Shown here piece by piece: positions 13,567 through 32,288 of a DNA stretch of 64,000 nucleotides. This stretch comes from Halorussus marinus (GTDB lineage Archaea > Halobacteriota > Halobacteria > Halobacteriales > Haladaptataceae): NCBI RefSeq assembly GCF_004765795.1, contig NZ_SBIV01000011.1, positions 1-64,000 of the forward strand, in the 5' to 3' direction. Position numbers and translations under genes: made by a program. The notes beneath the pieces are model-generated. The model had not been told where the DNA came from and did not search any database. It saw only the letters and a program-made list of their open reading frames with translations. The stretch's first letter is position 1. Every line of letters starts with the position of its first letter.

Positions 13567-13723
13567 CGTACAGTGAACCCGGGTCGAATCGCGCTCTCCA
13601 TCTAGTCGACACGGCTCAATTAGAACTGCTCGTAGAGAGACTCACAGAAGGAACGATGATGGGAACCCCCTCGCATCCTCCTCTTGGAGAATCTATAAAT
13701 GCTTGACTGGGGTTCACACTACC

Positions 13724-16588
13724 ATGGTTCCCTGGCGGGTGTACCAGCAAATCGCCACCGAGCTCGATGTCCCTCCCGAGACGATGCACCTCGTCAACGT
13801 GCTTGCTGATGGCGGCTATCTCACGGAGAACCAGCCGCCGTATCTGAACTACGACTTACCTGACTTTGGCACGCAGGTCACGTGGCTGGAAAAGCACCCG
13901 ACGCAAGGGATCGCATACTGTAAAGAACGCTACGGGGAGGACGCCGCAGTCGCCGCGACAATCCATGCTGTCGGCACAGAGGTTGCCTCCCGGACGGAGG
14001 GCGATCTCGCGGTTGGCTTCGCCATCCTCGGCAACTACATCGACGACTTTCTGCAGGACATTTCCCGGCACGACATCGCTGCCGAGGTCGAGAAAGTCCG
14101 GTCGTATTTCGATGCGAACACGATGGAGCTCAAGCGCATCGAAGACGCGCATACCGACGAGGAAACCACGTACGAGTACTGTGATTACTGTGGCGACGAA
14201 CTCGAAACCGCGTTCAGGTATCGCTGCGGAACGTGTGGCACGCGGTTCCCCGGCTGGTCGGCACTCGTCTTCGCTGAAGGTGAAGAACAGAGCGACTCGA
14301 AATGGCGCGAACAGCTCGACGTCACCGTTCTGAGCCAGAACGTCGAGAAGCGATTCCTCGTCCTCCGCTCGAAAACCTCGCTTCCCGGGTGGATCGAAGA
14401 AGGCGGGCAAATCGGTCAGATCATCGACGGCAGCCTCCACGACATGGGCCGCGTGGTGAATATCGATAACCGCGACATCCAAGTCGATTACTGGGGCGGC
14501 GTCGCAACAAGCCTTGAATCAGGACAGGACATCACGGTCTGCAGCTCCGAAACGATGATCGCCACAACCCAGCAACTCGGGTTGTTACGAGAACTACGCC
14601 GCGACTTCGCAGGCTGGCGGAACGAACAGAACCCAGACCCGACAGTGGCGAAACTCGCTGTCAACGGCCCCCACCTGTGCAACACACTCGACCAATCCAC
14701 GATCACTCCGCCGACACCTGCCGAGGTAGAGGATACGCGGAGTCTCGACGGCTTCGAACTCGACGACTCACAGCAATCCGTGCTGGCCGACATCCTCGGC
14801 CTCGACCCCGGAGACCTCTCACTCGTCGTTGGGCCACCAGGGTCCGGGAAAACCGAGGTGATCGCTAAAGCCGCGCACGAACTTGCGAACCGAGGCGAAT
14901 CCGTCCTCGTCACGTCGCACACCAACATCGCCGTTGACAACGTCATCGAGAAACTCAGCCACCAAGATTCGCATCAACTCGTCCGGGCCGGCCGGCCTGA
15001 GAAAATGTCGAAGGGTACGTCCGAAGTGATGCTCTCGAAAGTCATCGACGAGAGCGACGACGACTCCGTCTCAGAGTTGCTGGAGGAGGTCGAGGCCCTC
15101 AAATCGGAGATCAGCAACATGGGGAGTCAACTGGAGCACGACCAGGAGCAATACGAGGTGTTGCAACGAGCGGCTGAAACCGGACCTGTCAGCAACACGC
15201 AGATGAGCGAGGTCGAGGACGAGATCGATGCGAAGCAAGCCAAGCTCTCCGAAACGCGGCGGAAGATACAGGAGCTCCAGTCGGAGGCGGAGAAAACCTC
15301 CATCGAGAACGCGGACATCACCGGTGCGACGATCATCCGCTCCCAACTCGGCGGCCTCGCCCAGGTCCAGTTCGATACGGTCATCATCGACGAAGCGAGC
15401 CAAATCCCCGTCCCGCTCGGCCTCCTCGGGATGATCAACGCGAAGAAATGGGTGGTCGTCGGCGACCACCATCAACTCCAGCCAGTCCTCAAGACCCTCT
15501 CGACGAGCGACGGCAGCCCACCTGACGACGCCTCCATCTTCTCGTTCCTCCGCAACCGATACGATATCGACCAGTGGCTCGAATACCACTACCGAAGCCA
15601 CGCCGACATCATCGGCTTCTCCCAAGACCACATCTACGACGGGAACATCACCATCGACGACTCCTGCCCCAGCGGGTTCGAATGGGACCCCGCGGACGAC
15701 CCCGATTCGAACGTCGAAGCCATCTGCGACGGCCCACCCGTCACGTTCGTGGACATCACCGGCGAGCAATCCTGGCGCAAACGCTTCAGCGGCTCCGTCA
15801 ACACCGCAGAAGTCGATGTCGTCGCCGACCTCGTCGCCCACCTCATAGACGAGCACGGCATCCCAGAATCCGAACTCGGCGTCATCACACCCTACCGCGG
15901 GCAACGTACCCTGATCAGCGACGAACTCACCGACTACGGCAGCGTCGAAGTCTCAACCGTCGACGGCTTCCAAGGCCGCGAGCGAGAAACGATCATCTTC
16001 AGCGCCGTCAACACCGAGAAATCCGGGCTGCAATTCGCCGGGAACAAGAACCGCTTCAACGTCGCCTGCACCCGCCCGAAAGACCAGTTCATCATGGTCG
16101 GCAACAAAACCGCCATCGAAGAGAACGCCCCGCGGAGAAACACACTCCGCGCATTCATCCGCTACGCCAGCAAGCACGGCGGCGTCTTCAACTGGGACGG
16201 CGGACTCTGGACTGACGGAATCGACCCCTCCAACGTCCCTGCACCAGAGCCACGCGACCAACCCGACATCATCGAACCACCGGCTGGCCAGTCCTCGAAC
16301 ACAGGTCGTACAACGACCACCACCAATGGCTCCGGACACAGTAGTAGTGGCAACCAGTCAGACAGCCCTTCCGTCGATCCGCAAGTCCGCTCACGAGTCA
16401 CGGACATCGTCCAGTTAGCCCCGACATCAAACGGCGAATTAGCCGACGCATGGGGCCTCGACACCGGGAAAGAAGCCTGGCAATACCTCACCTCAGAACT
16501 CGACGACTACTACGAACGAAACGCCGACCACAAAATCCAACCAACCGACAAAGCCCACAAGCTCGTTTCGACTCCGAACACACCGTAA
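13724..16588 (+). CDS. SF1 DNA2/NAM7 (Upf1-like) helicase with an N-terminal Zn ribbon and a C-terminal wHTH-like domain
   Basis: GPPGSGKT, IIDEASQ, VGDHHQLQP, VDGFQGRE and FNVACTR motifs; CDYC..CGTC. Confidence 0.9.
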   Translation: MVPWRVYQQIATELDVPPETMHLVNVLADGGYLTENQPPYLNYDLPDFGTQVTWLEKHPTQGIAYCKERYGEDAAVAATIHAVGTEVASRTEGDLAVGFAILGNYIDDFLQDISRHDIAAEVEKVRSYFDANTMELKRIEDAHTDEETTYEYCDYCGDELETAFRYRCGTCGTRFPGWSALVFAEGEEQSDSKWREQLDVTVLSQNVEKRFLVLRSKTSLPGWIEEGGQIGQIIDGSLHDMGRVVNIDNRDIQVDYWGGVATSLESGQDITVCSSETMIATTQQLGLLRELRRDFAGWRNEQNPDPTVAKLAVNGPHLCNTLDQSTITPPTPAEVEDTRSLDGFELDDSQQSVLADILGLDPGDLSLVVGPPGSGKTEVIAKAAHELANRGESVLVTSHTNIAVDNVIEKLSHQDSHQLVRAGRPEKMSKGTSEVMLSKVIDESDDDSVSELLEEVEALKSEISNMGSQLEHDQEQYEVLQRAAETGPVSNTQMSEVEDEIDAKQAKLSETRRKIQELQSEAEKTSIENADITGATIIRSQLGGLAQVQFDTVIIDEASQIPVPLGLLGMINAKKWVVVGDHHQLQPVLKTLSTSDGSPPDDASIFSFLRNRYDIDQWLEYHYRSHADIIGFSQDHIYDGNITIDDSCPSGFEWDPADDPDSNVEAICDGPPVTFVDITGEQSWRKRFSGSVNTAEVDVVADLVAHLIDEHGIPESELGVITPYRGQRTLISDELTDYGSVEVSTVDGFQGRERETIIFSAVNTEKSGLQFAGNKNRFNVACTRPKDQFIMVGNKTAIEENAPRRNTLRAFIRYASKHGGVFNWDGGLWTDGIDPSNVPAPEPRDQPDIIEPPAGQSSNTGRTTTTTNGSGHSSSGNQSDSPSVDPQVRSRVTDIVQLAPTSNGELADAWGLDTGKEAWQYLTSELDDYYERNADHKIQPTDKAHKLVSTPNTP

Positions 16589-18050: not shown

Positions 18051-19103
18051 TCAGAGGGTCGAGTTTGCCTCTTGTAACGACTCGATAGCTTCCTGTAGGT
18101 GTGCCCGCAATTCATCGCTCATACGGTCATCATCTCCGGGTCGCCCACTCCGGGAGTCACTATCACGCGATACGTCCGCTGCCGAGTTCGATTTCGGTGT
18201 GCCCCATGTCTCAGTCCGTCCCAGATCGATGCTCTCCTGTTCGGCGACGTCGTCGAGCCGTTGCTGTTGGTCAGACTCGTGTTCAGCCGTCGCTGTGCTC
18301 TGTTCCGGGCGGGACCCAGTCGGACGTCCGCCGCGTCCGAACGCGTCCAGCGGGAAATCGTACGCGTATGCTCGCTTCACTTTGTTGAACGTTGTACGGC
18401 GGGAGATCCCGAGCACCTCCGTGATGTTACTCCGGTCGCACCCGCGTTCTAACGCCTGCCGAACCTGCTCGTCCTCCATCCGTTGCAACAGTAATTGCTG
18501 GTCGTCTGGGATGTGGCCGCGCGCTGAGTTCTCGATCTGATCGACGAGCCCCCACTCGCCAGTCTCAATGTCCTTGTCGACGATCTGCCGGTCGCGCGAC
18601 TCGATCCGGTTATCGAGCCCCATCAACACCCAGAGGCGCTCCCGGACCGCAGACACTGACAGGTCCGCGGTCATCCCGGACGCAATGTCTCCGGTCCGTG
18701 TCGGCCCGTGTGTCGCCAAGTACTGCAACACTTCGACGTCCTGCGGGAGGAGGACGCTTCGGTCTGCTTCCGTAATCGTGACCGGTGACTCACCCGGCGT
18801 CGCCTGCTGATGCACCCAGCTGTGACAGGGGCGGCACAGCAGCGTCAAATTCTCCAGGTCGTGCTCGCCCATCCCGTCTGGATCCCGCTCAATATGATGG
18901 ACGTGCAGTGTCGCCAACCCGCCTTCCGCCGGGCTGCGCCGCCCGCACGACTGGCAGCGGTGCTTGTACTCCTCTAGAACGTCTTGACGCGTATCCGGGT
19001 CAACCGTCTCGTGACAGTTACAGTGCCCGGGCTGTTCGGACTCGCCGCTCTTCGTTCGGTCACCGCTCGATTCGCCGTGTCGTCGTGCCGTAGTTTCTGC
19101 CAT
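18051..19103 (-). CDS. HNH endonuclease with HTH domains
   Basis: CQSCG..LHVHHI..NLTLLCRPCHSWVH; HTH segments downstream. Confidence 0.85.
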   Translation of the reverse strand: MAETTARRHGESSGDRTKSGESEQPGHCNCHETVDPDTRQDVLEEYKHRCQSCGRRSPAEGGLATLHVHHIERDPDGMGEHDLENLTLLCRPCHSWVHQQATPGESPVTITEADRSVLLPQDVEVLQYLATHGPTRTGDIASGMTADLSVSAVRERLWVLMGLDNRIESRDRQIVDKDIETGEWGLVDQIENSARGHIPDDQQLLLQRMEDEQVRQALERGCDRSNITEVLGISRRTTFNKVKRAYAYDFPLDAFGRGGRPTGSRPEQSTATAEHESDQQQRLDDVAEQESIDLGRTETWGTPKSNSAADVSRDSDSRSGRPGDDDRMSDELRAHLQEAIESLQEANSTL

Positions 19104-19289
19104 GCTTCGTCCTCGTGGTGGTCAGTTACGCGCCGATACGCCGGGTACTGCGTGCTGTATCGCTTCAATCCGCACGTGCGCAGGGATCGCTACGACTGGG
19201 TCGAGATCGGTAGTCCAGCTGGGCTGAGTGGAGTGCTGGAGCCAGGGTGCTGGCGTGCCGATCTCGGGGGTGGGTGTGTGCGACGCATG

Positions 19290-19958
19290 CTACACCTCTC
19301 TGGTCGGGGTGAGTGACTTCACTTGGAACTCGGACTTGCTACAGTATCGTTCGGCGATACGGCCGAGCGCTCGCGTCCGCAGCACGTCCGCGACGTTATG
19401 CAACACGAGCTCCGCGAACCGCCCGTCCTCAAACGCCGCTACAGCCGCCGCACTATCATCGAACGGGTCGAGATCACCGTACGGGCCGTCGCACAACACG
19501 TCGTACGCCGTTACGAGGCCACCCTGGTCGGCGCCATCCACTGTCGTGTTGAATCGGTCCGTGACGACCGGCATCATATCCGCATACGGCGCGTCCACGA
19601 ACGGCCACGCCAACTCACGGTGCGCGTACCGCGTTCGAAGGAACGGTAAATCGAACCCGCCGTTCCACGTCTCCCCGTTGTACGCGACCAGCAGGATGTC
19701 CTCATCACGGAACCGCTCCGCAACGAACTCGGACACCGCGAGCAACAGCTCTCGTTCACACGCGTGGGTAGACACGCTCACAAGCGTCTCTGACACTGCG
19801 GACTCAACCGCCGCCTCAATACCTGACGCGTCTCTCCCGTCAGTCTGCACGAACACTCGCACACCCAGCGGCACCGCAAACCCGACCGTCGTCACGACAT
19901 CAACCGCGTCGAACCCGGTCGTCTCAATATCAAACGCCACTTGCTCCAACACCATCAC
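19290..19958 (-). CDS. DEDD (RNase H-fold) 3'-5' exonuclease, HRAMP-associated
   Basis: AFDIETTG, AYNG..FDLPFL and HNVADV motifs. Confidence 0.85.
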   Translation of the reverse strand: MMVLEQVAFDIETTGFDAVDVVTTVGFAVPLGVRVFVQTDGRDASGIEAAVESAVSETLVSVSTHACERELLLAVSEFVAERFRDEDILLVAYNGETWNGGFDLPFLRTRYAHRELAWPFVDAPYADMMPVVTDRFNTTVDGADQGGLVTAYDVLCDGPYGDLDPFDDSAAAVAAFEDGRFAELVLHNVADVLRTRALGRIAERYCSKSEFQVKSLTPTREV

Positions 19959-20929
19959 ACGTCACCCCCTGCGTGCGTAGCGTCCCGCTCGGGAACACGG
20001 TCCTCGGTCGCCGGGCGGACGCGGAACTCACCGAATCCGAACCGCGAATGCGTCCCAACCCGCAGCACGCCGTTCCGTGCCGTCTCAACCGGATCATCAC
20101 CAGCATACTCGACGATTTGCCCGTGATCTACCGTGTCCACCACGTACGACTCGGCACCATCTGCGAGCCGGGTCTCCCGGCGCCGTAACTCGCCCGTCGA
20201 CAGCCCGGACCTCGTTTCCGCCGTGTCGACACGCCACCACCACGGCACGCTCTGCGGATCACCACTCGGATGCTCGGAATCCAGCACGTACGGGGACACT
20301 AACTCGATCCGGCAGGCCTCACCGCTCGACTGCGCTGCCTCCAGCCGTGAGTAGTCCAGCGAATCCACGTCCACGACCTGCGTTGCAACGACCGACAGGT
20401 CGCCAAACCCGTAGTTCCGCGCGCCGCCGACCTGCAGTCCGTCGAGCACGTCCGCATCGACCGGGACGACATCGTCGCCGCGCGACTCGCTGTGGAGATA
20501 GCAGTGCACGTACCACGACACCGACCGCCGCTGGTTCCGCTGCCCGGCTGGCCGGCCAAACCAGCACGTGTCGTCGAACGCCACTCGGCCACCGTGCCGT
20601 TGCAGGTCGAGCGCGTTGTGCGCGTCTCGCGGCCGCGAATCCAGCAACCATCGCTGCGCCGCATCACGGAACACGAACAAATCCTCGTACGCCTCAACAG
20701 CAGGCAGCGACTGCCCGAGCTTCCCTGCATACCCATCCTGCGACGCCGCCGCAGGGTACGCACCGTACTCGCCCGGCAGGAACACGCCGTGACTCACCTG
20801 GAGCGACCGCCGCGTCTCACCGTCGACACGCCGCGCAACAGCGTTGAACAACGCGTTCCCCGTCACGAAATACGGGTGCCCGAGGTACTGCCCGTCCAGC
20901 TCGAACAACACTTGTTGAATCCGCGTCAC
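19955..20929 (-). CDS. Diverged Cas5-group RAMP protein (HRAMP)
   Basis: FELDGQY..TGNALFNAVA; two glycine-rich loops, LQVGGARNYGFG and LRVGTHSRFGFG. Confidence 0.75.
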   Translation of the reverse strand: MTRIQQVLFELDGQYLGHPYFVTGNALFNAVARRVDGETRRSLQVSHGVFLPGEYGAYPAAASQDGYAGKLGQSLPAVEAYEDLFVFRDAAQRWLLDSRPRDAHNALDLQRHGGRVAFDDTCWFGRPAGQRNQRRSVSWYVHCYLHSESRGDDVVPVDADVLDGLQVGGARNYGFGDLSVVATQVVDVDSLDYSRLEAAQSSGEACRIELVSPYVLDSEHPSGDPQSVPWWWRVDTAETRSGLSTGELRRRETRLADGAESYVVDTVDHGQIVEYAGDDPVETARNGVLRVGTHSRFGFGEFRVRPATEDRVPERDATHAGGDV

Positions 20930-20981
20930 GCACACCACCCCACACGGCGCTGGGCAACCACGTCGCTAGGCGGCCGGCACG

Positions 20982-21286
20982 CACCCACTCCGTTTCCAGT
21001 GTCTTTCACCCCGCAGCGCGACCACGATCTGCCACCCCACCACAGCACTCCACCACACACCCGGTTTCCAGTGCCACGACCCACAGAGACGCTCACACGC
21101 CCGAATGTAGCACCTCCGGATACGGTCGAAGCAGACTGCAGCCGGACACACACCCTGTTTCCAGTGTCATCTCGACGACCGCCCACGCTTGAACCACACA
21201 CCCCATTTCCAGTGTCATCGACACAGCAACCACCGAACACGGTCCCCCGCCGACCGACCGATCCACACACCCCGTTTCCAGTGCCA
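20982..21286 (-). repeat. Array of five 23-bp direct repeats with unique spacers (CRISPR-like or ORB-like) inside the HRAMP operon
   Basis: + strand consensus CACACACCCCGTTTCCAGTGYCA at 20982, 21054, 21147, 21195 and 21264; spacers 49, 70, 25 and 46 bp. Confidence 0.85.
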
Positions 21287-21355
21287 CGGGCCAAACAGGC
21301 ACGCTCCCCGGAGAAACCAGCCGGTCTCTCACCACCAGCACCCACGACACCGTGA

Positions 21356-22270
21356 TCACGCATCACGCGCATCACCCCCAGCACCAGCAGCCGCTCCAGC
21401 ACCCACCGGTCCCAGCGCCGCGACATACTCCTCGATGTACTGGAGCGCCGTCGACCACGACCGGATGCGTCGCAACTGCGCATCCAGCACGCGCCACCGC
21501 CGCTCCTCATCCACAGCGAACGGTACAGCCGGGAGCCGCGACCACACATCCGCAAACGACCGCGCCGGCCCGGCACCAAGCCGCGCCGCCAGCCGCCCAC
21601 CCGGCGCACCCGTCACGTGCACCGCAAACGACGGCGTCGTCAGCACCGTCCGATGCGGCACAACCACTGAATCAGCCGGTCCATCACGCTCGCTGACCGC
21701 GAGGAACAGCTCATCGAACTCGAACCCCGACCGGTAATTATCCACGAGCGCCGCGACCAGCAACGTGTGGTACTTCAACGACGTGTACGGGTAGTACGGC
21801 GACTCGTTGAACAACGACGGCACCGTTGCATCCAGCCACGCCGCGTGCAGCGCCGTCGACTCCTCACCACTGATCACGTCGTACAACGCTCCGCCAATAT
21901 CACCGACCGGCTCCATCGCCGACGCCTGCTGCCCAGTCAACAACGACACGCGGAACCACGACTCGTGCGCATCCAGCGTCTGCTCCGGTTCTCCACACGG
22001 ACGACTGAGTAACGCTGCATCCCGATCTGCACCTAGCGGCACCGCCTCATTCACCCGCACTCCGCAGAACGACTCCGCAGCATGCTCATGCCCCCGCATT
22101 CGCGCTTTATGCACGTCATGCCGGTACACTGCGACCAACGGATCGACACTCAACCCGTCGACCTCCACTTCAGCAGCCTCCCGCTCCGAGTCCGTCCGTG
22201 ACACGAACGGCCGGATCGACTCCGTCGGCGGCTGCAACCCTTCCTCAGTCGACTCGTCAGGATCGGTCAT
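21356..22270 (-). CDS. Uncharacterised protein, likely the third HRAMP core component
   Basis: Overlaps the Cas7-like gene stop (ATGA); YPYTSLKYHTLLVAAL motif; lies between the Cas7-like and Cas5-like genes. Confidence 0.7.
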   Translation of the reverse strand: MTDPDESTEEGLQPPTESIRPFVSRTDSEREAAEVEVDGLSVDPLVAVYRHDVHKARMRGHEHAAESFCGVRVNEAVPLGADRDAALLSRPCGEPEQTLDAHESWFRVSLLTGQQASAMEPVGDIGGALYDVISGEESTALHAAWLDATVPSLFNESPYYPYTSLKYHTLLVAALVDNYRSGFEFDELFLAVSERDGPADSVVVPHRTVLTTPSFAVHVTGAPGGRLAARLGAGPARSFADVWSRLPAVPFAVDEERRWRVLDAQLRRIRSWSTALQYIEEYVAALGPVGAGAAAGAGGDARDA

Positions 22271-23223
22271 GCCGACCCACCTCCGGGCATCGACACATCA
22301 CCATCACGCGCCGCTACACGCGCCTGCAACGCCTTGACGAACGCCGGTCGGCACTCCGAGGTCCACAATTCGTCCTTCTCCTCCATCGCCTGCGTCACTG
22401 CCTGCGCACGATTGAACACCCGCCGCACCTCCCGCTCACTGTACAGCGGATTCATCACCCACGCGTCCGCGATGCCGGCACCGAAATTCCGAGCGCCGCC
22501 AACTTGGAACTCGAACTCGTCGCTGTGCGCGTCGAGGAACGACACCGCTTCTAACAGTAGCCCGACGAACTCCGGCTTCAGCTCGCGGAGCGTCAGCTTC
22601 CACGTCCCGTCAACGTTCCCGAGCACGTCACGATCCGCCTGGCGGAGCGGCTGCCCACCGTCCTCCTCGTTCCGCGACCGCACCTGATTCGAGATTTGTC
22701 GATAGTGCGCCTCCGCCTCTCCATCTAGGACATCCACCTGTCGCCGGATCGGTGAGAATGACACCGGGCGACGCAGCAACTTCCCCGGCTGATCACCGAA
22801 TCCACCGAACAAGTCGTAGACGACACATCCATCGTCGTGTTCGTCGAGACACTCACCTTTCTTGTGGTACCCCGATTCGAGGTCGCGCTCGTACACGTTC
22901 GCGCGCATGTAATCCGCGTTCGGTTCTCCCGGGTGGCACGCAGTCGCGCCAGCGATCTGGACGACTTCCTCGCACCCGTGCCGCAGCCAACCTGACAGGG
23001 TGAATGGTGAGATCTGCCCCTCGATCTGATTCATTGGATCGTCAGACTCGTACCGCTCCGCCGACGCGTGGTGCCGGTCCGTGACGATGCCATCACCAGG
23101 AGACAGCAGGTCGATTTCGAGCCCAATGTACACGTCCGGCAGCAACATCTCCTCCACTGACCGCGGCAGCTCCACCTCGACATCGAGATGTGAATCAACG
23201 AGCCCCGACTCATCCGATGTCAT
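22267..23223 (-). CDS. Diverged Cas7-group RAMP protein (HRAMP)
   Basis: PFTLSGWLRHGCE, Zn-type C..C..CVVYDLFG, PGKL, G-loop FQVGGARNFGAG. Confidence 0.8.
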   Translation of the reverse strand: MTSDESGLVDSHLDVEVELPRSVEEMLLPDVYIGLEIDLLSPGDGIVTDRHHASAERYESDDPMNQIEGQISPFTLSGWLRHGCEEVVQIAGATACHPGEPNADYMRANVYERDLESGYHKKGECLDEHDDGCVVYDLFGGFGDQPGKLLRRPVSFSPIRRQVDVLDGEAEAHYRQISNQVRSRNEEDGGQPLRQADRDVLGNVDGTWKLTLRELKPEFVGLLLEAVSFLDAHSDEFEFQVGGARNFGAGIADAWVMNPLYSEREVRRVFNRAQAVTQAMEEKDELWTSECRPAFVKALQARVAARDGDVSMPGGGSA

Positions 23224-23753
23224 CGCTCACCACCCCAGAACAACCCGCGAACTACATCACCCTCTGGGCGACTCGCACGACGCCTCGCCTCGTCACGGGA
23301 CAACTTCGCCCGCGTCTCGGACGTTTCTGGCTCCTCAATGTCCGACGCGACGTTCGCAGGTGATCCACCATCTGGGATCTTCCGAACCGACTTCGTCGCC
23401 TCCGCACTCACTCCCACCACTTCGGGATCCAACAGCACCGGCCACGACGACTGCGTAGCCCCGTCCGAGCACACTCCGATGCGGCCCTCGACAAGCAATT
23501 CCCGCACACCAAGCGTGTACTCCTTGGGAAGCTCATGACCCTCGTCACCGCACACTACGTGACCGATCTGAAACATCACCTCACCAGCCGGCCGAAACAC
23601 GTACACTGCGACCGCTTCACCCTCCCGAAGAGAAGAGCCGCACACTTGACACGTCGCGGCCCCTTCCCCGAGCGAAATATAATTTAATTGATGTATGTCT
23701 TCAATCAGTGGCCTGTCGCTACCTTCTTGGGTTTTCGAAGTTGAGTTCTTCAT
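23220..23753 (-). CDS. Hypothetical Zn-finger protein, first gene of the HRAMP operon
   Basis: CQVCG..C..H; ATGA overlap with the Cas7-like gene. Confidence 0.65.
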   Translation of the reverse strand: MKNSTSKTQEGSDRPLIEDIHQLNYISLGEGAATCQVCGSSLREGEAVAVYVFRPAGEVMFQIGHVVCGDEGHELPKEYTLGVRELLVEGRIGVCSDGATQSSWPVLLDPEVVGVSAEATKSVRKIPDGGSPANVASDIEEPETSETRAKLSRDEARRRASRPEGDVVRGLFWGGER

Positions 23754-23840
23754 GGGTTCTCGGACGGTATTCGGAACCCAGCCTGGGTGCTGCAACACCC
23801 GGGCACTTCTGTTGATCAGTGCCCAACGGCTGAGTTCGTG

Positions 23841-23892
23841 TCCATTAGTCAATCGTCCATTGGCATAAACCTTTGGACGCTTGACTAATGGA
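23841..23892. promoter_or_regulatory. 19-bp inverted repeat (18/19 match), putative operator between divergent promoters
   Basis: TCCATTAGTCAATCGTCCA-N14-TGGACGCTTGACTAATGGA; the spacer contains CATAAAC. Confidence 0.65.
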
Positions 23893-24287: not shown

Positions 24288-27164
24288 ATGAGTTCACAAC
24301 TCCCTTCAAATATCCAGCCAGGAACAGTCGTAGAAAACCGTAACAGACTCTGGAGAGTTGACGCTGTCGACGGAAACGTTGTCACGGCAACCCCCCTGGA
24401 TGGGAACACAGCTGACCGGCATCGATTCTATACGCCTGTTGAGAACATCAAGGAAGGTAGTTTAGAACCGCCAGACCCGAAGAAGCTCGGCAATCCCGAG
24501 TTTCAGCGGTTACTGAATCGGGCATATCGTCTCTCTATGCTCCACGGGACGGCCCCGCTCGTGAGCCTCCAGCGATCACGAGTAATCCCAACCGAGTACC
24601 AACTTACCCCAGTTGTGATGGCTCTCGATATGCCCCGGGTCCGGATGCTACTGGCGGACGACGTCGGTCTCGGGAAAACCATCGAGGCGGGTCTTATCAC
24701 CAGTGAGCTTATGGCTCGCAACAAGGCTGATCGAATCCTCATCATCACGCCTGCGAATCTTCGGGAACAATGGCGTGAGGCGTTCAATTACTTCTTCCAC
24801 ATCGATGCGGACATCATCAGCCGACGCCACCGAAAGGCGATGGAAAAGGAGATCCCGCCAGGAACCAGTCCGTGGGAACACTTCTCGAAGCTCATCGTCA
24901 GCATCGACTATGCGAAGCAGAATAGCGTCCGGCACGAGATTCTTGATCAAGATTGGGACCTCGTCATCATTGACGAGGCGCACCAAGCGGCGAAGCCCCA
25001 CGAATCCGGGGCGAACGAAACGGTCGATATGCAGCGCTGGGACTTTGCGACTGAGATCACCGACCACGCCGAACACTGTCTCCTCCTGACGGCTACGCCT
25101 CACAACGGGTACACGGATTCGTTCGCCAGTCTGATCCGGATGCTCGACGTCGACGCTGTCTCCGGGCCTCGACACAATCCCACTATTCATCGAGACGTTG
25201 CCCGAAAGCACGTGGTTCAACGCCGGCGAGATGACGTCAAGCAGTGGTTCTCCGATAGCGAGGGGAAGAGTCCCTTCCCGGAGCGTGACCAAGACGAGGT
25301 TCGGGTCACACCCACGGAGTACGAGAAGGAGACGTACGACGCCGTTCGGGAGTACGGTGAACTGCTGATGTCCTCCGCACAGCGTTCCAGTTCCAAGAGC
25401 CAGACACTGGCACGCTGGTCCGTTATTCACTTCCTCAAGCGAGCGCTGAGCAGTCCCGAAGCCCTCCGACGATCTCTGAAGAACCGCCAGGACAAACTCG
25501 AAGGTCGGTTGGAGGATCTTGACGAGGAAGACACCCAGACTGTAATCGAGGAAACAGCCGGAATCTCTGAGTCGATGGCACAGGCAAATGCACTCGACGA
25601 CGACCCCGGTGAAGAGTACAGCGAGGAGGAGGTCGGGGAACGAGTCGAGCGAGTCGTCACGGGTGACAAAGCCGCCATCGAACAGGAGCTGGACGTTCTC
25701 GAAGACGTCGCAGAGAAGGCGGAGCGAGTCACCAAAACCCGTGACGCAAAGCTTCAGCGGCTTCTCGACGAGACACTTCCCAATCGGTTCCAGTACCCCC
25801 GTGTCATCATCTTCACGAAGTACGTGGACACGCTGGAGTACCTCGAAGAGCAGATCAAGGACTCGCAGAGCGACGAAACAGAGGTCTTCACGCTTCACGG
25901 ATCGCTGAACGAAGCCCAGCGGAAGGAACGGTTCAAAGAGTTTGAGGACTCTACACGGGGCGTTCTCATCGCCACCGACGTGATATCGGAGGGCATGAAC
26001 CTCCAGCACGCGGCGAACCAGATCATCCACTACGAGCTGCCGTGGAACCCCAATCGTCTGGAGCAACGGAACGGCCGAATCGACCGGTATGGTCAGAAGA
26101 CCGACGAGGTCGTCATCCGAACGATGGTGGTCGAGGACCAGATGGACGTCGCCATCCTCGAAAAGCTCGTCCAGAAAGCGAACAACATCAGGCAGGAGTA
26201 CGGCTTCTCACCGCCGTACTTCGGTGACGACGAGGGTATCCTCGAACTCCTCAAAGACGAGGGGATCGACGCGGGCGTTCCACAGGCGACACTCGAAGAG
26301 TTCGGAGGCGGTTCCGCACCAGCAGAGCGTGAGAGTGCAAGCGTCTTCGACGACGAGACACTCGACCGGATTAAGTCCGAGTCCTTCTACGGACACACCG
26401 AAGTCGGACTGCAAGAGGTTCAGAAGCGCCAAGAAGAGACGCACCAGCGGATCGGCGGTCAGGGAACCCTGGAACAGTTCGTGAAGAGCGCTTTGGACTT
26501 GTTCAGTTGCTCGTACGAGATGAACGTCCAAGGCCACCTCGACATCAAGATTACTGCTGACCGGCTTCAAGGACCGGATATCGACCGAGAGTACGAGGAC
26601 GTGACGTTCGATCCGAACGAGGCGTCCCAGTCCTCGGACACGGAGATGCTCGACATCGCCCATCCGCTCGTACAGCGGCTCATCGAAGCCGTCAAAGAAA
26701 CTGCGTTGACCGACGAGGATCGCTATGGGCGGACAGCCATACGGGGAACCGATGAGGTGAGTGAGCCGACGGCAGTGTATACAGCACTGGTTCGATATGT
26801 GGCAGACACCGAGCCTGACCCAACGATTATGGAGGAGTTGGTGCAGGTCGGGTTGCCGATCTACAGGGACGAGCCCCTCAATCAGGACATCGTCGAGGCG
26901 CTGGAGGAAAGCGAAGCAAAACCGGTTCAGCTGACACAGATGGAGAAGGAAGACGATCTCGAAGCAGCACTCGGACACGAGGCGTTCGAGCAGACGCTCC
27001 AACACCGGGCGGAACAGCGCCGTGACAAGATCGTCGAACAGCGAACGGAGATGCGAACGGAGCTTGAGAAATCCGGAAGCGGAAGCTGGCTGTCCGGCAT
27101 CGACGACGTCGAGATTGCGAGTAAAGATCTGCTGACTGTCACCGTCTACTACGGAAGCAACTAA
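24288..27164 (+). CDS. SNF2-family helicase (DISARM DrmD-like)
   Basis: LADDVGLGKT, IIDEAH, LTATPH, SEGMNLQ and WNPNRLEQRNGRIDR motifs. Confidence 0.9.
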   Translation: MSSQLPSNIQPGTVVENRNRLWRVDAVDGNVVTATPLDGNTADRHRFYTPVENIKEGSLEPPDPKKLGNPEFQRLLNRAYRLSMLHGTAPLVSLQRSRVIPTEYQLTPVVMALDMPRVRMLLADDVGLGKTIEAGLITSELMARNKADRILIITPANLREQWREAFNYFFHIDADIISRRHRKAMEKEIPPGTSPWEHFSKLIVSIDYAKQNSVRHEILDQDWDLVIIDEAHQAAKPHESGANETVDMQRWDFATEITDHAEHCLLLTATPHNGYTDSFASLIRMLDVDAVSGPRHNPTIHRDVARKHVVQRRRDDVKQWFSDSEGKSPFPERDQDEVRVTPTEYEKETYDAVREYGELLMSSAQRSSSKSQTLARWSVIHFLKRALSSPEALRRSLKNRQDKLEGRLEDLDEEDTQTVIEETAGISESMAQANALDDDPGEEYSEEEVGERVERVVTGDKAAIEQELDVLEDVAEKAERVTKTRDAKLQRLLDETLPNRFQYPRVIIFTKYVDTLEYLEEQIKDSQSDETEVFTLHGSLNEAQRKERFKEFEDSTRGVLIATDVISEGMNLQHAANQIIHYELPWNPNRLEQRNGRIDRYGQKTDEVVIRTMVVEDQMDVAILEKLVQKANNIRQEYGFSPPYFGDDEGILELLKDEGIDAGVPQATLEEFGGGSAPAERESASVFDDETLDRIKSESFYGHTEVGLQEVQKRQEETHQRIGGQGTLEQFVKSALDLFSCSYEMNVQGHLDIKITADRLQGPDIDREYEDVTFDPNEASQSSDTEMLDIAHPLVQRLIEAVKETALTDEDRYGRTAIRGTDEVSEPTAVYTALVRYVADTEPDPTIMEELVQVGLPIYRDEPLNQDIVEALEESEAKPVQLTQMEKEDDLEAALGHEAFEQTLQHRAEQRRDKIVEQRTEMRTELEKSGSGSWLSGIDDVEIASKDLLTVTVYYGSN

Positions 27165-27166
27165 CG

Positions 27167-30100
27167 ATGAGTATCGATACCCCCTCCACCGAAGACGAAA
27201 CAGAATCGAGTTCCAGTACGCCACGAACCGGGTCAACGACGTTTATCAACACTAGCGGCGGCCTGCTCACGGACGAACTGGTGAGCAAACTCCGCCAGCG
27301 TCACTGTGGGGAGTCGGCCGTCCGACCGGAGACCTTTGCGTTACCGGACACGGAGCCGCCCGAAGAGGCCGACATCGAAGCGGAGATCGGGAATACGTGG
27401 GACACGCTTCGAGAGCGGTGGGACGAGCTCACGATGGACGAGACGCTGTTCCATATGGACATCTCGGACGCTCGTACGAAGTGGATCCTCAAGCTGTTCC
27501 AGAATCTCGGCTTCGAACCGGTCTTCCAGCGTGAGAATCTCGAAGCAGGCGGCATCGAGGCGAATCTCTCCCACAAGGGTTGGCCCGACGGTGACATCGA
27601 AAGCTACGGCGAGATGGAGGGGCGGACGGCTCCGATCATCCATACCGTCGAACCTGAGCAGAAGCTGGACGAGAAACCAGAGGACGCTCCCCGTGGAGCC
27701 AAAAGTCCACACGACACGCTCCAGGAGTTCCTGAACGCCAGCGACAAACACGACTGGGCCGTCGTGACCAACGGACTAACGCTCCGGATTCTTCGAGACT
27801 TCTACCACACGTACACCCGTGGGTACGTGGAGTTCGATCTGGAGAATATGTTCACGAGCCGGGATTACGGAGACTTCCGGGCGCTCTACCGGCTCTGCCA
27901 CGCCACACGGTTCATCGAGCCCGTTGTCGCCGATGATGAAGAGGATGACGTCGAAACCCCGCTGGAGCAACTGTATCAGGTCGCTCTATCAACCGGGGTC
28001 AAGGTCGGTCAAGACCTCCAGTCCAACGTCGTAAGCGCCATCGAGACGCTAGGAACTGGACTACTCAATCAGGAGATTCGAGAATACCTCGAAGAAGGTG
28101 GAGAGGAGGAAGCCAAGGAGTACTATCAGGAGGTTCTCCTGGTGGTGTATCGCCTGCTCTTCCTGATGTATGCAGAGCAACGGGGAATGATGGCTTCTCG
28201 TGATAGTCTGTACACTGACGAGTACAGCATTACGAACCTCCGTGAGAAGGCCGAAACACGCACGAACAGGAGTGACCGGAACAGCGACCTGTGGCACGGA
28301 TTGCAGTCCACGTTCCGTCTCGTCGAGAAGGGCGATGATGAACTGGGTGTCCCCTGTTACAATGGGATGCTCTTCGACTCGGATCGGTTAGAATGGGTGT
28401 CAGAAAGCGAGTGCTACAACGACGATCTCTTAGACGCAATCGAGGATCTAACGCTGATCGAACACGAGGGGACTCGCCAGCGCATCTCGTACGCCGACCT
28501 CGGCGTTGAGGAGATTGGCTCCGTCTACGAGAGCCTTCTCGAATTCACACCGAAGCTTGCAACCGAGGTTGTTGAGCTAGAAGACCGAACGGTCTCTCAC
28601 GGTGAGTTCTATCTCGATGATCGAGGAACCGAACGGAAAGAGACCGGGAGCTACTACACGGATCCCGGACTGGTACAGGAACTCGTTCAGAGTTCGCTCA
28701 AGCCCGTCGTAGAAGATCGCCTCGAAGATGCTGCCACAGCTGAGAAAAAAGAAGATGCTCTCCTCGATATCTCGGTCTGTGACCCAGCAAGCGGAAGTGG
28801 GGCGTTCCTGATAGCTGCAAACAATTTCCTCGCACAGCGACTCGCTCGTATTCGGACTGACAGTGACTATCCACCTGAAGAGCAGATACGTGAGGCACGT
28901 CGTGATGTCCTCCAGCATTGTATCTACGCCGTTGACCTCAACCCAATGGCCGTCGAACTGGCGAAGGTCAGCCTGTGGATCAATTCCGCCGTGGAAGACA
29001 AACCGCTGAACTTCCTCGACCACCACATCAAATGCGGAAACTCCCTGATTGGAACCAATTCGAAACTTCTGGAAGGAGAATTCCCCGTTGATGCGTACGA
29101 AACCGCCGGTGGCCGTGATTGGCACGTCGGGAATGAGATTCGGAAGCGGATTAGAAGCGAAAACAAGGAACGGTCTAAGGGTTCCTCAGAGTCGTCGTTG
29201 CAACAATGGGGTGCGGGCAAGGAGGAGTATGTGGATATCGCTGAACAGATTGATGAGATCGAAGAGGAAGATACGGAAGACATAGAGAAAAAGAAGGAGC
29301 TGTACGACGAACTCCAGCAGTCAGAGGCGTACCAACAAGAGAAACTCGCGTACGATATCTGGACAGCAGCGTTTTACTGGCCAATGGATGGTTCAGCGAA
29401 GGAATATCCATCCCCTTCGACAATCGAAAAAATCCGTCGTAACCCGTATCCGAATGACGAAGAGCTTCGGGATTTGATAGATATAGCTACTGAGCTTGCG
29501 GAGGAGCAGCGATTCTTCCACTGGGAACTTGAGTTCCCGGAAGTGTTCGGTGGGTCTTCATCTGGTTTTGATTGTGTCTTAGGCAATCCTCCGTGGGATA
29601 AAGTAAAAGTAGAAGAAAAAGAATGGTTTGCCGGAAAGGTTCCTGAAATAGCGGAGTCTGACTCGAAAGGGCACCGTTCACAACTTATTAATGATCTGGA
29701 AGAATCGAACTCGGATCTTTATAAGCAATGGGAGTTAGCGTCCAAACGGTCTTCCCAAACGTCCAAATTCATACGGGAATCTGGACGCTATCCGTTATCT
29801 GGATCTGGTGAAGTCAATACCTATCCCATATTTACAGAACTCTCAAACTCTGAGTTAGTAAGCGATCTTGGAAGAGTAGGGATGGTCGTCAAGACAGGTA
29901 TTGCAACAGACTATCGGACGAGAGATCTATTTGCTCATTTCGTAGAAAACAATCAGTTATCGACTTTATATAGCTTTGTTAACAGTGAAGGACTCTTCCC
30001 TGACGTTCATCCAAATGAGCGGTTTTGCCTACTCACTCTCACAGGGGACGAAAACCCAGTTTCCGAATTTGAGTTGTCATTCTATAATACAAATATCGAA

Positions 30101-31240
30101 ATGCTAAATGATAGCAATAGAAAGTATACATTAACCCCGGACCAGATAGAAGCGATAAATCCGAATACAAAGGGCTGCCCGACCTTCAAGAACAAACGTA
30201 TTAGGGATATTTCAGTTTCGATCTATGATAAATTCCCTGTATTAGTTAATGAGGAGTCAGAAAATAATCCGTGGGGATTAACATACCATCGGGTCGTCGA
30301 TATGACGGGAGATTCAGGCTTATTCGAAAATAACACGCTTGAATCTCTTCGGGAGCGAGGATATGAACTTGATAAGAACGGTATCTTCCAAAGTGACAAT
30401 CCTGCCGAGGAAAATTACCTTCCGCTATATGAGGCGAAGTATATTCATCAATTCGATCATCGTTTCGGGACTTTTGAAGGAGTCTCTAAAGACTCTCGAT
30501 TTACTCGAAGAGCCAGTACTAGGACTCCGTCTACTACAGAGAAACAGAGTGTGGATTATGAAATTGTTCCTCGATACTGGATAGAAGAGGGCGACTTTGA
30601 GAGTCTGAAATCTGAAATGAATTGGGACCGTGAATGGATATTTACCTTCCGAGATATTGCGAGAGTTACTAGCGATCAGCGGACAGCAATGGGAACAATC
30701 GCTCCTTTCTACCCATTCAGTAACAAAGCACCTGTTCTTACTTTCTCTAAGGACAGATCGGGCGAGGAGGTGGTTATTTTCACTACACTATTCACCTCAT
30801 TTGCATTTGATTTCATTCTGCGACAATCTCTCAGCGGTGCGTCAATAAACCTATATATCCTAAAACAACTCCCAATGCCTGAACCAGAGTTGCTATCAGA
30901 ATACAGTGTTGAATATGGTGGAGAGGAGCAATCTCTTGATCAGTTCCTATTTGAGCGCGGGCTCAAACTAATATGGACTTCCCACTCATTAGATCCATTA
31001 GGAAATGATGTCGAGATCGAGTCAGGGCCTTATGTGTGGGACGAAGAAGAGCGAGCCCAACTCAGAGCTGAAATCGATGCCGCAGTCTCAAAGTTATATG
31101 GACTAAACCGAAGTGACTTCGAGTATGTTTTAGAATCATTTGACATATTAGAGAAAAAACAGAGGGAAGAGTATGGTGATTATAAACAGAAGAGAAATTG
31201 CCTACGGACATATGATGAAATAGAACTAGTGAGCGACTGA
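27167..31240 (+). CDS. Large N6-adenine DNA methyltransferase (Eco57I/type IIG-like, DrmMI-like)
   Basis: RKETGSYYT, DPASGSGAF and GNPPW motifs; C-terminal TRD-like region. Confidence 0.9.
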   Translation: MSIDTPSTEDETESSSSTPRTGSTTFINTSGGLLTDELVSKLRQRHCGESAVRPETFALPDTEPPEEADIEAEIGNTWDTLRERWDELTMDETLFHMDISDARTKWILKLFQNLGFEPVFQRENLEAGGIEANLSHKGWPDGDIESYGEMEGRTAPIIHTVEPEQKLDEKPEDAPRGAKSPHDTLQEFLNASDKHDWAVVTNGLTLRILRDFYHTYTRGYVEFDLENMFTSRDYGDFRALYRLCHATRFIEPVVADDEEDDVETPLEQLYQVALSTGVKVGQDLQSNVVSAIETLGTGLLNQEIREYLEEGGEEEAKEYYQEVLLVVYRLLFLMYAEQRGMMASRDSLYTDEYSITNLREKAETRTNRSDRNSDLWHGLQSTFRLVEKGDDELGVPCYNGMLFDSDRLEWVSESECYNDDLLDAIEDLTLIEHEGTRQRISYADLGVEEIGSVYESLLEFTPKLATEVVELEDRTVSHGEFYLDDRGTERKETGSYYTDPGLVQELVQSSLKPVVEDRLEDAATAEKKEDALLDISVCDPASGSGAFLIAANNFLAQRLARIRTDSDYPPEEQIREARRDVLQHCIYAVDLNPMAVELAKVSLWINSAVEDKPLNFLDHHIKCGNSLIGTNSKLLEGEFPVDAYETAGGRDWHVGNEIRKRIRSENKERSKGSSESSLQQWGAGKEEYVDIAEQIDEIEEEDTEDIEKKKELYDELQQSEAYQQEKLAYDIWTAAFYWPMDGSAKEYPSPSTIEKIRRNPYPNDEELRDLIDIATELAEEQRFFHWELEFPEVFGGSSSGFDCVLGNPPWDKVKVEEKEWFAGKVPEIAESDSKGHRSQLINDLEESNSDLYKQWELASKRSSQTSKFIRESGRYPLSGSGEVNTYPIFTELSNSELVSDLGRVGMVVKTGIATDYRTRDLFAHFVENNQLSTLYSFVNSEGLFPDVHPNERFCLLTLTGDENPVSEFELSFYNTNIEMLNDSNRKYTLTPDQIEAINPNTKGCPTFKNKRIRDISVSIYDKFPVLVNEESENNPWGLTYHRVVDMTGDSGLFENNTLESLRERGYELDKNGIFQSDNPAEENYLPLYEAKYIHQFDHRFGTFEGVSKDSRFTRRASTRTPSTTEKQSVDYEIVPRYWIEEGDFESLKSEMNWDREWIFTFRDIARVTSDQRTAMGTIAPFYPFSNKAPVLTFSKDRSGEEVVIFTTLFTSFAFDFILRQSLSGASINLYILKQLPMPEPELLSEYSVEYGGEEQSLDQFLFERGLKLIWTSHSLDPLGNDVEIESGPYVWDEEERAQLRAEIDAAVSKLYGLNRSDFEYVLESFDILEKKQREEYGDYKQKRNCLRTYDEIELVSD

Positions 31241-31255
31241 CCTCGCTAATAGAAA

Positions 31256-31564
31256 TTATTGTTGAGGGTCAGTTCTTAGGGTTTCTAAAGGCACCCACTC
31301 TTCTTTTTCCTCACCAAAAAATTCCCACCATGTCCATCCATTTATTTCATATTCACTATTCGTAACATCTGAATTCGCTTCACGAGCGGCCCCCGATGGG
31401 GAGAATTTCTGATTATTATAAATTATATGCCCATCTCGTATTTTGGCTTGAACCGCTTCACCGGCTTGCTCACCCCGTTTATACTGGTGACGAATTACAA
31501 CTTTCCTTTCGAGTTCCTTTAGCCTTGGATGGCCATTTTCCGATGTGTAGGCCTTCTCCGACAT
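31256..31564 (-). CDS. RAMA-domain (modified-DNA reader) protein
   Basis: GHIIYNNQKFSPSGAA...NGWTWW. Confidence 0.7.
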   Translation of the reverse strand: MSEKAYTSENGHPRLKELERKVVIRHQYKRGEQAGEAVQAKIRDGHIIYNNQKFSPSGAAREANSDVTNSEYEINGWTWWEFFGEEKEEWVPLETLRTDPQQ

Positions 31565-31681
31565 AAGAGAAACTATTAAACATATCTTCTTAAGCAATTC
31601 GTCAAGTGGCCTTCCTAGAGCACCCCCCGTCGACAAGAAGCAACATCAATTACCCTTGCCCTCGTAAAGGAAGTTAGTATC

Positions 31682-32245
31682 GTGACTGATGTTGAGTTAG
31701 CGAATATTGTCGGGATTCTTGATTTCCATAGGGAGTTAAACTTAGAGGCAGTTGCTGAGTTATTAGAATCTTCTAGTGTAGTGTCTGAGGTCAACTATTC
31801 TCCTGAAGAAAACCACTGGCTTCAAACTAGGTTTAGATTTAATGAGGGGTCGAAATACGTGGCTTTCTATCGATCTGGAACCTGTGCATTAGTTGGTTGT
31901 AGTTCATTTGAACAATTGAATCAGCTTGTAGAACTGGTTGAGAACGCAATGGAGCCAGTAATACGAGATACCCCTTCACTGGATATTAAGAATTTGGTGT
32001 GTGTTGGTGAGTTAAGCCAGAAGCTTAACCTCACACACTTAGCAATTGCTGCGGGCCTTGAACATGTGGAATACGAACCAGAGCAGTTCCCGGGATTAAT
32101 CTATAGAGGTAATGAATCCGATCCAGTATTTCTTGTCTTCGCTAGTGGAAAAGTGGTTATTACAGGGGCAACTTCAAGAAAGGAGGCAAATCAATCATTT
32201 CAAGATTTCACAGAGAAGTTAGTAGAATTGGGGTTAAGGGACTAA
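31682..32245 (+). CDS. tbp: Divergent TATA-box-binding protein family protein
   Basis: ANIVG; EYEPEQFPGLIYR..LVFASGKVVITGA; the first repeat is degenerate. Confidence 0.85.
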   Translation: MTDVELANIVGILDFHRELNLEAVAELLESSSVVSEVNYSPEENHWLQTRFRFNEGSKYVAFYRSGTCALVGCSSFEQLNQLVELVENAMEPVIRDTPSLDIKNLVCVGELSQKLNLTHLAIAAGLEHVEYEPEQFPGLIYRGNESDPVFLVFASGKVVITGATSRKEANQSFQDFTEKLVELGLRD

Positions 32246-32288
32246 CCCAGCACAAGCATTTTGTCGCACTTGGCCATCTGACAATGTA

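Follow-up and report, generated by a model that had tools for sequence, protein, structure and literature searches.

Direct repeats in a haloarchaeal HRAMP operon resemble origin recognition boxes rather than a CRISPR array

We analysed the first 64,000 nucleotides of contig NZ_SBIV01000011.1 from Halorussus marinus (hereafter, the window), in which a minus-strand operon carries its genes in the order F, A, B, gap, C, D, and then E. Genes F through B are joined by stop–start overlaps of 4 nt, as are C and D. The upstream, coupled gene F (23220..23852) encodes a Cys-pair protein with no family match, and its start is uncertain. Gene A (22267..23223) encodes a Cas7-like RAMP protein of 318 aa, whose AlphaFold2 model (pLDDT 75) has its best Foldseek matches in Csm3 and type VII Cas7 (E 2e-7 to 1e-5). 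Gene B (21356..22270, 304 aa) is a conserved HRAMP core protein found in nearly all relatives; it has no Pfam, PADLOC, or NCBIfam match, and Atlas returned no usable one. Gene C (19955..20929) encodes a Cas5-like RAMP protein (AlphaFold2 pLDDT 84). The ORF finder places its start at 20938, though a coupled GTG at 20929 is likelier. In VIA-align, the predicted model of gene C matches a type VII Cas5 with Z 14.5 (rmsd 3.0, 200 aligned) and a III-D chain with Z 14.1, compared with Z 10.2 for the best Cas6, and its modelled fold is closer to type VII/III-D Cas5 than to Cas6. A PDB sequence search gave weak matches only (Csm4, E 0.8). Gene D (19290..19958) is a DEDDh/RNase H-fold exonuclease (Pfam RNase_H_2, E 6e-5; PADLOC DEDDh, E 0.003). 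Gene E (18051..19103) is an HNH nuclease with a helix-turn-helix region (Pfam HNH in 22/22 members, HTH_20 in 8/22).

With diverged Cas7 and Cas5 homologues of recognizable fold, the core protein B, and DEDDh and HNH nucleases, this is a genuine HRAMP locus, as the initial annotation had proposed. The gene content agrees with what has been published for HRAMP, namely type III/VII-affine Cas7/Cas5 RAMPs, a core protein, DEDDh, HNH, and no true array (PMC8730458, PMC12669027). The 2022 review expected a non-CRISPR-like mechanism (PMC8730458), the 2025 classification still calls the system array-less (PMC12669027), and the available portions of these descriptions mention no cis elements (PMC8730458, PMC12669027). 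What sets one HRAMP clade apart here is a filler ORF with boxes resembling origin recognition boxes (ORBs), together with a conserved motif upstream of the HNH gene and a marked excess of G over C on the sense strand. A literature search outside subscription papers returned nothing linking HRAMP to ORBs and no direct case of Orc autoregulation. In profile searches of the host genome, cas1 was not found while the H. volcanii control was positive; PF10040 (Cas6) also gave no match, in a search that missed the H. volcanii control as well.

The five 23-bp direct repeats described earlier in this operon were re-derived at starts 20982, 21054, 21147, 21195, and 21264 (start-to-start 72, 93, 48, and 69), with 49, 70, 25, and 46 bp between them. 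In order of transcription, and all on the minus strand, they are box 1 (21264..21286), box 2 (21195..21217), box 3 (21147..21169), box 4 (21054..21076), and box 5 (20982..21004), the last being the most degenerate. They do lie between gene B and the cas5 gene C, in what had been taken for the only gap in the operon, but that gap is not non-coding. It holds a filler ('bridge') ORF of 145 codons (20926..21363, minus strand) that carries all five boxes, with overlaps of 8 nt at the gene B stop and 4 nt at the cas5 start. When 3 mismatches are allowed, the only matches to the motif in the 3.76-Mb genome are the five array sites and one other, 978 bp from an orc1/cdc6 gene. The exact degenerate pattern is found at 59 sites in 28 of 401 Halobacteria genomes, compared with 0 for a reversed control. 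Neither the single repeats nor the window bridge (z +0.4) folded better than shuffled sequences, and Rfam returned nothing near gathering score.

HRAMP is widespread in Halobacteria, with gene C matched in 108 of the 401 genomes. We collected 120 loci (10, 30, and then the 80 next-best full-length matches, with four near-full-length matches and all fragments excluded) and kept 111 once duplicates, and loci whose contig did not include gene B, had been removed. Sixty-three of these are tight (B touching cas5), and forty-eight have a gap of at least 20 nt. Clade 1, with DEDDh and/or HNH nearby, comprises 47 gap loci and 12 tight ones; clade 2, with no DEDDh or HNH within the collected flanks, is tight in 51/52. 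The inserts of one clade measure 40-600 nt and hold one to five ORB-like boxes in the same orientation. Matches to the repeat matrix fall in the B-cas5 gap only and on the sense strand only, bar one weak reverse match. Two to five copies are present in 22/48 gap loci, window included, and the array is absent from the other 26 and from 63/63 tight loci. The repeats are thus not absent from homologous HRAMP loci but recur at the same junction, as the initial annotation would have it; the part of its expectation that fails is CRISPR-style variability, since the spacers are inherited.

Several other features of these operons deserve mention. A single-copy 17-nt motif upstream of the HNH gene (19153..19170, minus strand) is present in 41/46 HNH-containing clade-1 loci. 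Over its first 8-10 nt it is similar to the 3' end of a haloarchaeal CRISPR repeat in L069 (L numbers denote collected loci), and by its sequence the motif might mimic a crRNA handle, which would make it more promising than the repeats as the missing HRAMP RNA. It is also a pseudo-dyad over a TATA-like hexamer, and a role as operator or promoter is as likely. No conserved target was found for the 9 nt after the handle-like part. The sense strand has a G-over-C bias at 19290-23223 and in all clade-1 operons: four-fold sites in genes A-D have G at 0.51-0.69 and C at 0.10-0.31, compared with 0.36 and 0.50 genome-wide, and gene B is the top outlier among 1268 ORFs. The bias is restricted to the cassette and absent from clade 2; our guess is that it comes from long single-strand exposure or R-loops. 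The operon sits in a defence island, represented at 24288-37592 by a SNF2 helicase (DrmD-like), a type IIG restriction-methyltransferase (DrmMI-like), and then a 1768-aa ORF, as well as a superfamily 1 helicase at 13703-16588. Three decayed or truncated HRAMP loci (L132, L139, L140) keep the bridge and a box, with most genes lost or cut by the contig end. In clade 2 (L067-L080 and most others), a conserved AT-rich motif of ~30 nt lies 40-90 nt past the cas5 stop. It contains the top 9-mer in 33/52 loci, and the flank diverges abruptly beyond it, as would be seen at the terminus or attachment site of a mobile element.

In forty-four of the forty-eight gap loci, one frame of the insert is free of stops, begins at or near the B stop, and closes with a stop that overlaps the cas5 start. 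Of the remaining two frames, one is open in 4/48 and the other in 10/48. The exceptions are L008, L054 (frameshifts throughout), L064, and L111. Such a coupled ORF, together with a true peptide-repeat ORF at the A-B junction of some loci, might suggest that the repeat encodes a peptide motif of a small accessory protein. However, the repeat is read in frame 0 in eleven loci, in frame 2 in five, and in two frames within one ORF in six. Where motifs are picked by amino acid, rare codons are fixed: ACT in 34/34 Thr, GGA in 37/37 Gly, and GAA in 13/13 Glu, codons that account for 7%, 11%, and 18% in cas5. The filler peptide is not conserved, with dN/dS of 0.48-1.29 in twelve pairs (undefined in one more), compared with 0.08-0.24 for cas5. 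The peptide reading is already largely refuted, and we find it scarcely credible. Because the repeat is read in all three frames, it is conserved as nucleotides (DNA or RNA) rather than as a peptide, which upholds the earlier view on this point. Repeat periods are divisible by three in 39/45 HRAMP cases, compared with 37/135 spacings at true origins, because the filler frame must stay open. The shortest inserts, at 40-63 nt, hold barely more than the terminal box described below.

The filler ORFs of relatives contain further elements. GUGGUG-loop hairpin arrays with freely varying stems occupy the B-cas5 gap of ten loci and are absent from the window; sites with a stem of at least 6 bp number 32/106 in the bridge and 5/389 elsewhere in the operon, and fold z is -3.2 to -7.3 in four loci. 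The GUGGUG loop is the right half of the common ORB variant. A possible tie of these GTG-loop hairpins to the pRN1 primase motif was dropped, as GTG is not required for pRN1 replication (PMC4234260). Nine loci have other frame-preserving inserts in the same gap, including ~150-nt duplications, a Cys/Asn-rich repeat, and an Asp-rich repeat. An optional coupled acidic ORF is found at the A-B junction of eleven loci, in several of which it contains a repeated peptide resembling the N-terminus of the window's gene B.

CRISPR direct repeats are ~23-50 bp long, and the initial annotation had taken the window's copies for a degenerate CRISPR array, with variable spacers from which HRAMP guides would be processed. 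There are likenesses to class 1 arrays, including degenerate type VII: near-identical direct repeats, unique intervening DNA beside cas7/cas5 (here co-transcribed with them), and no adaptation module (PMC12669027). Segments of 21-28 nt other than the window's accompany the repeat on metagenome contigs, and all four metagenome contig sets searched gave related loci only. Across nine pairs, spacer divergence is 0.15-0.29, compared with 0.15-0.45 at cas5 four-fold sites, and is slightly lower in most pairs, which suggests mild constraint at most. But the segments between repeats are far from uniform, at 25-70 bp in the window and 1-268 nt over forty-five segments across loci, and they are locked in frame, as expected of a DNA signal wrapped in a filler ORF. 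They share the operon's G-rich composition, align between relatives, and drift much as silent sites do, with some tandem duplicates, rather than being acquired from foreign DNA and replaced.

Neither did the spacers find targets. Our searches covered five bridges, the window's and 4 of the 47 others. The window array matched nothing in plasmids and phages better than E 0.4, and two 21-nt spacer stretches had 0 exact matches in viral contigs. No spacer target was found for the bridges of L005 (phages, plasmids), L001 and L047 (phages), or L022 (plasmids), and the sole strong plasmid match among the bridges searched was a homologous bridge. No HRAMP Cas5 relative was confirmed in viral contigs. 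Nor does the GAAAC within the repeat behave as the class 1 repeat handle that it had been taken for: it is the core of an archaeal ORB, followed by the ORB G-string, so that conservation continues 3' of GAAAC, where a spacer should begin. With no credible virus or plasmid match in these five bridges and no cas1 in the genome, spacers that serve as CRISPR guides seem very unlikely to us, and by their sequence the repeats do not appear to form a CRISPR array.

The repeats instead appear to be near-copies of ORBs, the sites to which Orc1/Cdc6 binds. Boxes 1-5 are identical at 19, 18, 19, 19, and 17 of 20 positions to ORBs beside orc1/cdc6. Over 7.5 million genome positions, 19/20 is reached at three array copies only and 18/20 at three positions, one of them in the array; the 17/20 of box 5 is reached at ~50 others. 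The published euryarchaeal ORB consensus and halophile G-string fit the repeat as well, so far as the available part of that report goes (PMC1868953). The likeness to haloarchaeal ORBs, mini-ORBs, and G-strings includes a shared core and similar tolerated positions (PMC1868953, PMC3528665, in part), and extends to the position directly before a start codon and to pair spacing. Boxes 3 and 2, with a 48-bp period, resemble the 47-49 bp ORB pair before orc genes, and periods of 45-51 bp make up 21/45 in HRAMP and 28/135 of the spacings at true origins. The pattern matched exactly by three of the window repeats is present in 69/151 genomes, and among thirty loci listed for it, twenty-three lie beside one Orc family (72-82% identical), two are HRAMP, and five have neither within 1.5 kb. 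The ORBs of a second Orc family are an exact fit to the HRAMP pattern; the survey of Orc families scored four candidates per genome and so undercounts them. A plasmid BLAST match to the repeat proved to be an ORB of the Halorussus halophilus plasmid NZ_CP044526, where an inverted pair flanks an AT-rich tract before tandem orc genes.

Nine exact-pattern regions lie away from the listed cas5 matches. Three are HRAMP pieces or remnants, two are inverted pairs round an AT-rich tract beside orc1/cdc6, and one is likewise arranged with the orc gene 12 kb away. The remaining three fall in none of these groups. Lone ORB-like boxes with no HRAMP or evident orc gene in the collected flanks stand at L134:4998 and 7059 (oriented), L133:4998, and L137:4998. 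By-eye labelling of the genes there shows near-identical copies 2 kb apart, one past a resolvase-like ORF and one past a ParA-like operon.

The boxes also differ from the ORBs that they resemble. They lie inside a translated ORF of a CRISPR-derived operon, and they lack an adjacent orc1/cdc6 gene, an inverted partner, and an AT-rich unwinding tract. The leading TT pair found in 145-149/151 true ORBs of the closest family is missing, and a G stands where that family has G in 2/151. A matrix built from true ORBs ranked array copies 5th, 8th, 9th, and 14th in the genome, rather than first, because of the missing TT pair. The host has two origins of its own with related boxes, but none of its proteins matches the closest Orc family at more than 51%, and that family's ORB is absent. 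Among nine other array-bearing genomes, four carry the closest family and five have no member among the orc loci collected; set against the 69/151 genomes with the pattern, this points to neither dependence nor exclusion. We also considered the HNH protein as the box binder and rejected it, as we detected no relationship between its HTH region and the Orc winged helix (hhalign probability 1.4%) and box-less loci carry the HNH gene too.

By published criteria, the cluster is not itself an origin, because it has no inverted box copy (none in 120 loci), no AT-rich tract, and no orc gene on its contig. The maximum AT in 60 nt is 0.43-0.52 in 18/19 arrays, compared with 0.62-0.77 beside orc genes, and none of the host's orc matches is on the window's contig. 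These same observations make it highly improbable that the boxes are a dormant or relic origin of an HRAMP-carrying mobile element, or the neutral duplication of a captured ORB, as does the conservation of box cores while the spacers drift. Such an ancestry would account for the ORB identity, for tandem duplications within arrays (L001, L029), and for one HRAMP locus that sits between two orc genes on a small replicon. A closer parallel may be oriC2D of Haloarcula hispanica, a datA-like cluster of eleven ORBs without origin activity that was proposed, in the part of the report available, to titrate Cdc6E and so to control oriC2 negatively (PMC3936714). By analogy, the HRAMP cluster, which is likewise dense, irregularly spaced, and without origin layout, is a plausible initiator sink. 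However, oriC2D sits immediately downstream of cdc6E, its cognate gene, and attempts to delete it failed (PMC3936714), while the HRAMP cluster is remote from orc, optional, and in a host where we found no exact cognate initiator.

A second type of box, resembling the ORBs of oriC1, ends many of the inserts. It lies within 32 nt of the cas5 start in 28/47 clade-1 gap loci, compared with 0/12 clade-1 tight loci, and other clade-1 gene ends have it in 0/39, 0/45, 1/46, and 0/13. In clade 2 it is found in 6/51 tight loci, inside the last codons of B. It varies where oriC1 ORBs vary and is consistent with a primer for H. hispanica oriC1; Spearman correlations from the comparison were set aside, as anchor positions inflate them. 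The window has lost this terminal box.

In L022, the terminal box is matched by Halorubrum virus BJ1 at 27/27 nt (E 9e-4) and by Humcor1 at 96%. The viral site lies between tRNA-Phe and the next gene, directly before the ORF43 start in BJ1, and is kept in BJ1, Humcor1, and two BJ1-like proviruses although one flank varies. The box is oriented such that HRAMP sense RNA is complementary to the strand of the virus on which tRNA-Phe and ORF43 lie. BJ1 and Humcor1 each have genes for Orc1/Cdc6 and MCM, by our gene check and the available part of a published report (PMC2194725). Two interpretations fit the match: an initiator-binding site common to both sides, or a guide–target pair. In a plasmid and phage search, the window's own boxes had no comparable virus match. 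The L022-type box occurs in 22/401 genomes, comprising nine HRAMP loci or remnants, two BJ1-like proviruses, and eleven other sites. Nine of those eleven (L287-L295) are one conserved chromosomal box in a single genus, with no orc within 1.5 kb, and possibly a satellite Orc1 site. The BJ1-type box (L277:5001-5027, L278:2650-2676, L298, L300) marks the edge of a conserved block beside tRNA-Phe, and in Humcor1 it is ~12 kb from the orc1 gene and the sole such box in 26 kb scanned.

With moderate confidence, we favor the explanation that the boxes are a predicted Orc1/Cdc6-binding cluster, which may switch cas5-DEDDh expression or soak up initiators. Coupling of the filler ORF to both neighbours would let cas5 still be translated from the long mRNA, and the spacers would be filler that keeps the frame and the ~48-bp register. 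The binder could be one of the host's own Orc proteins, with a related specificity, or an Orc brought in by a plasmid, mini-chromosome, or virus. When bound, the cluster might block transcription into cas5-DEDDh, soak up initiator, or both. The make-up of the Cas7/B/Cas5 complex, its activity, and its nuclease would then be tied to the level of free initiator, which would shift when a foreign replicon brings its own Orc or its own ORBs. Several of the observations above sit uneasily with this explanation: the lack of an exact cognate initiator, the missing TT and deviant G, the loss of the window's terminal box, and an insert that is dispensable in every tight locus. In addition, the copies all point one way and their G-string doubles as a Shine-Dalgarno-like sequence, so that a role at the RNA level also fits, and the GUGGUG-loop hairpins of some relatives point to single-strand recognition.

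Two rivals to initiator binding place the boxes in RNA. A guide role survives solely in an inverted form, in which the repeated ORB mimic, not the spacer, is the targeting part. Here a Cas5/Cas7 filament would take up ORB-mimic fragments of its own mRNA and use them as invariant, innate guides to the origin boxes of plasmids or viruses, or to viral transcripts crossing such a box, and HNH or DEDDh would cut or trigger abortive infection. The virus match and its complementarity to HRAMP RNA are what this idea predicts, all boxes are on the transcribed strand, and outside the array no position in the host genome reaches 19/20, which leaves no close self-target. The proteins, as modelled, offer a type III/VII-like RNA-binding backbone. 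Nevertheless, we regard it as unlikely. The virus match is no less well explained by a protein-binding site in common, as these viruses encode their own initiator, and the same box stands at eleven sites that are neither HRAMP nor BJ1. The internal repeats differ systematically from common plasmid ORBs where a guide should match, and four of nine other array genomes themselves carry that ORB family. In viral contigs, the internal repeat occurs as eleven scattered single copies, near our rough chance estimate. No processing nuclease was identified in the host by the PF10040 search, with its missed control, and over half of HRAMP loci have no boxes.

Alternatively, the boxes could be extra copies of the cas5 translation start, bound on the mRNA by the Cas5-like RAMP or its complex to set subunit ratios, their ORB likeness being left over from a time when they were captured from an orc promoter. 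The ribosome-binding region of cas5 and the terminal box overlap, ORBs abut orc start codons in the same orientation, and the fixed-loop GUGGUG hairpins, limited to a subclade, lie in the same ORF. We judge this RNA operator quite improbable. A protein that does not read ORBs would have to keep two types of them, oriC1-like at the terminal position and secondary-origin-like internally. The spacers show no similarity to inter-ORB origin segments (30/100 shuffles score as high), and we accordingly dropped the idea that they descend from an orc promoter. The window bridge, as noted, folds in an ordinary way.

These results give such HRAMP loci a defined cis element that can be mutated, and they connect a system derived from CRISPR with replication-initiator sites, one of which is kept in haloviruses. 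They also show how a DNA signal can enter a tightly coupled operon by being wrapped in a filler ORF. These features hint that HRAMP responds to plasmid and viral replication initiators or origins, and they make the question of what the system senses or targets a testable one. Tentatively, and with some doubt, we propose that HRAMP clade 1 may be an innate defence trained on the replication machinery of invaders, in which ORB mimics would serve either as initiator-sensing bait or as fixed guide RNA against ORB plasmids and BJ1-type viruses.
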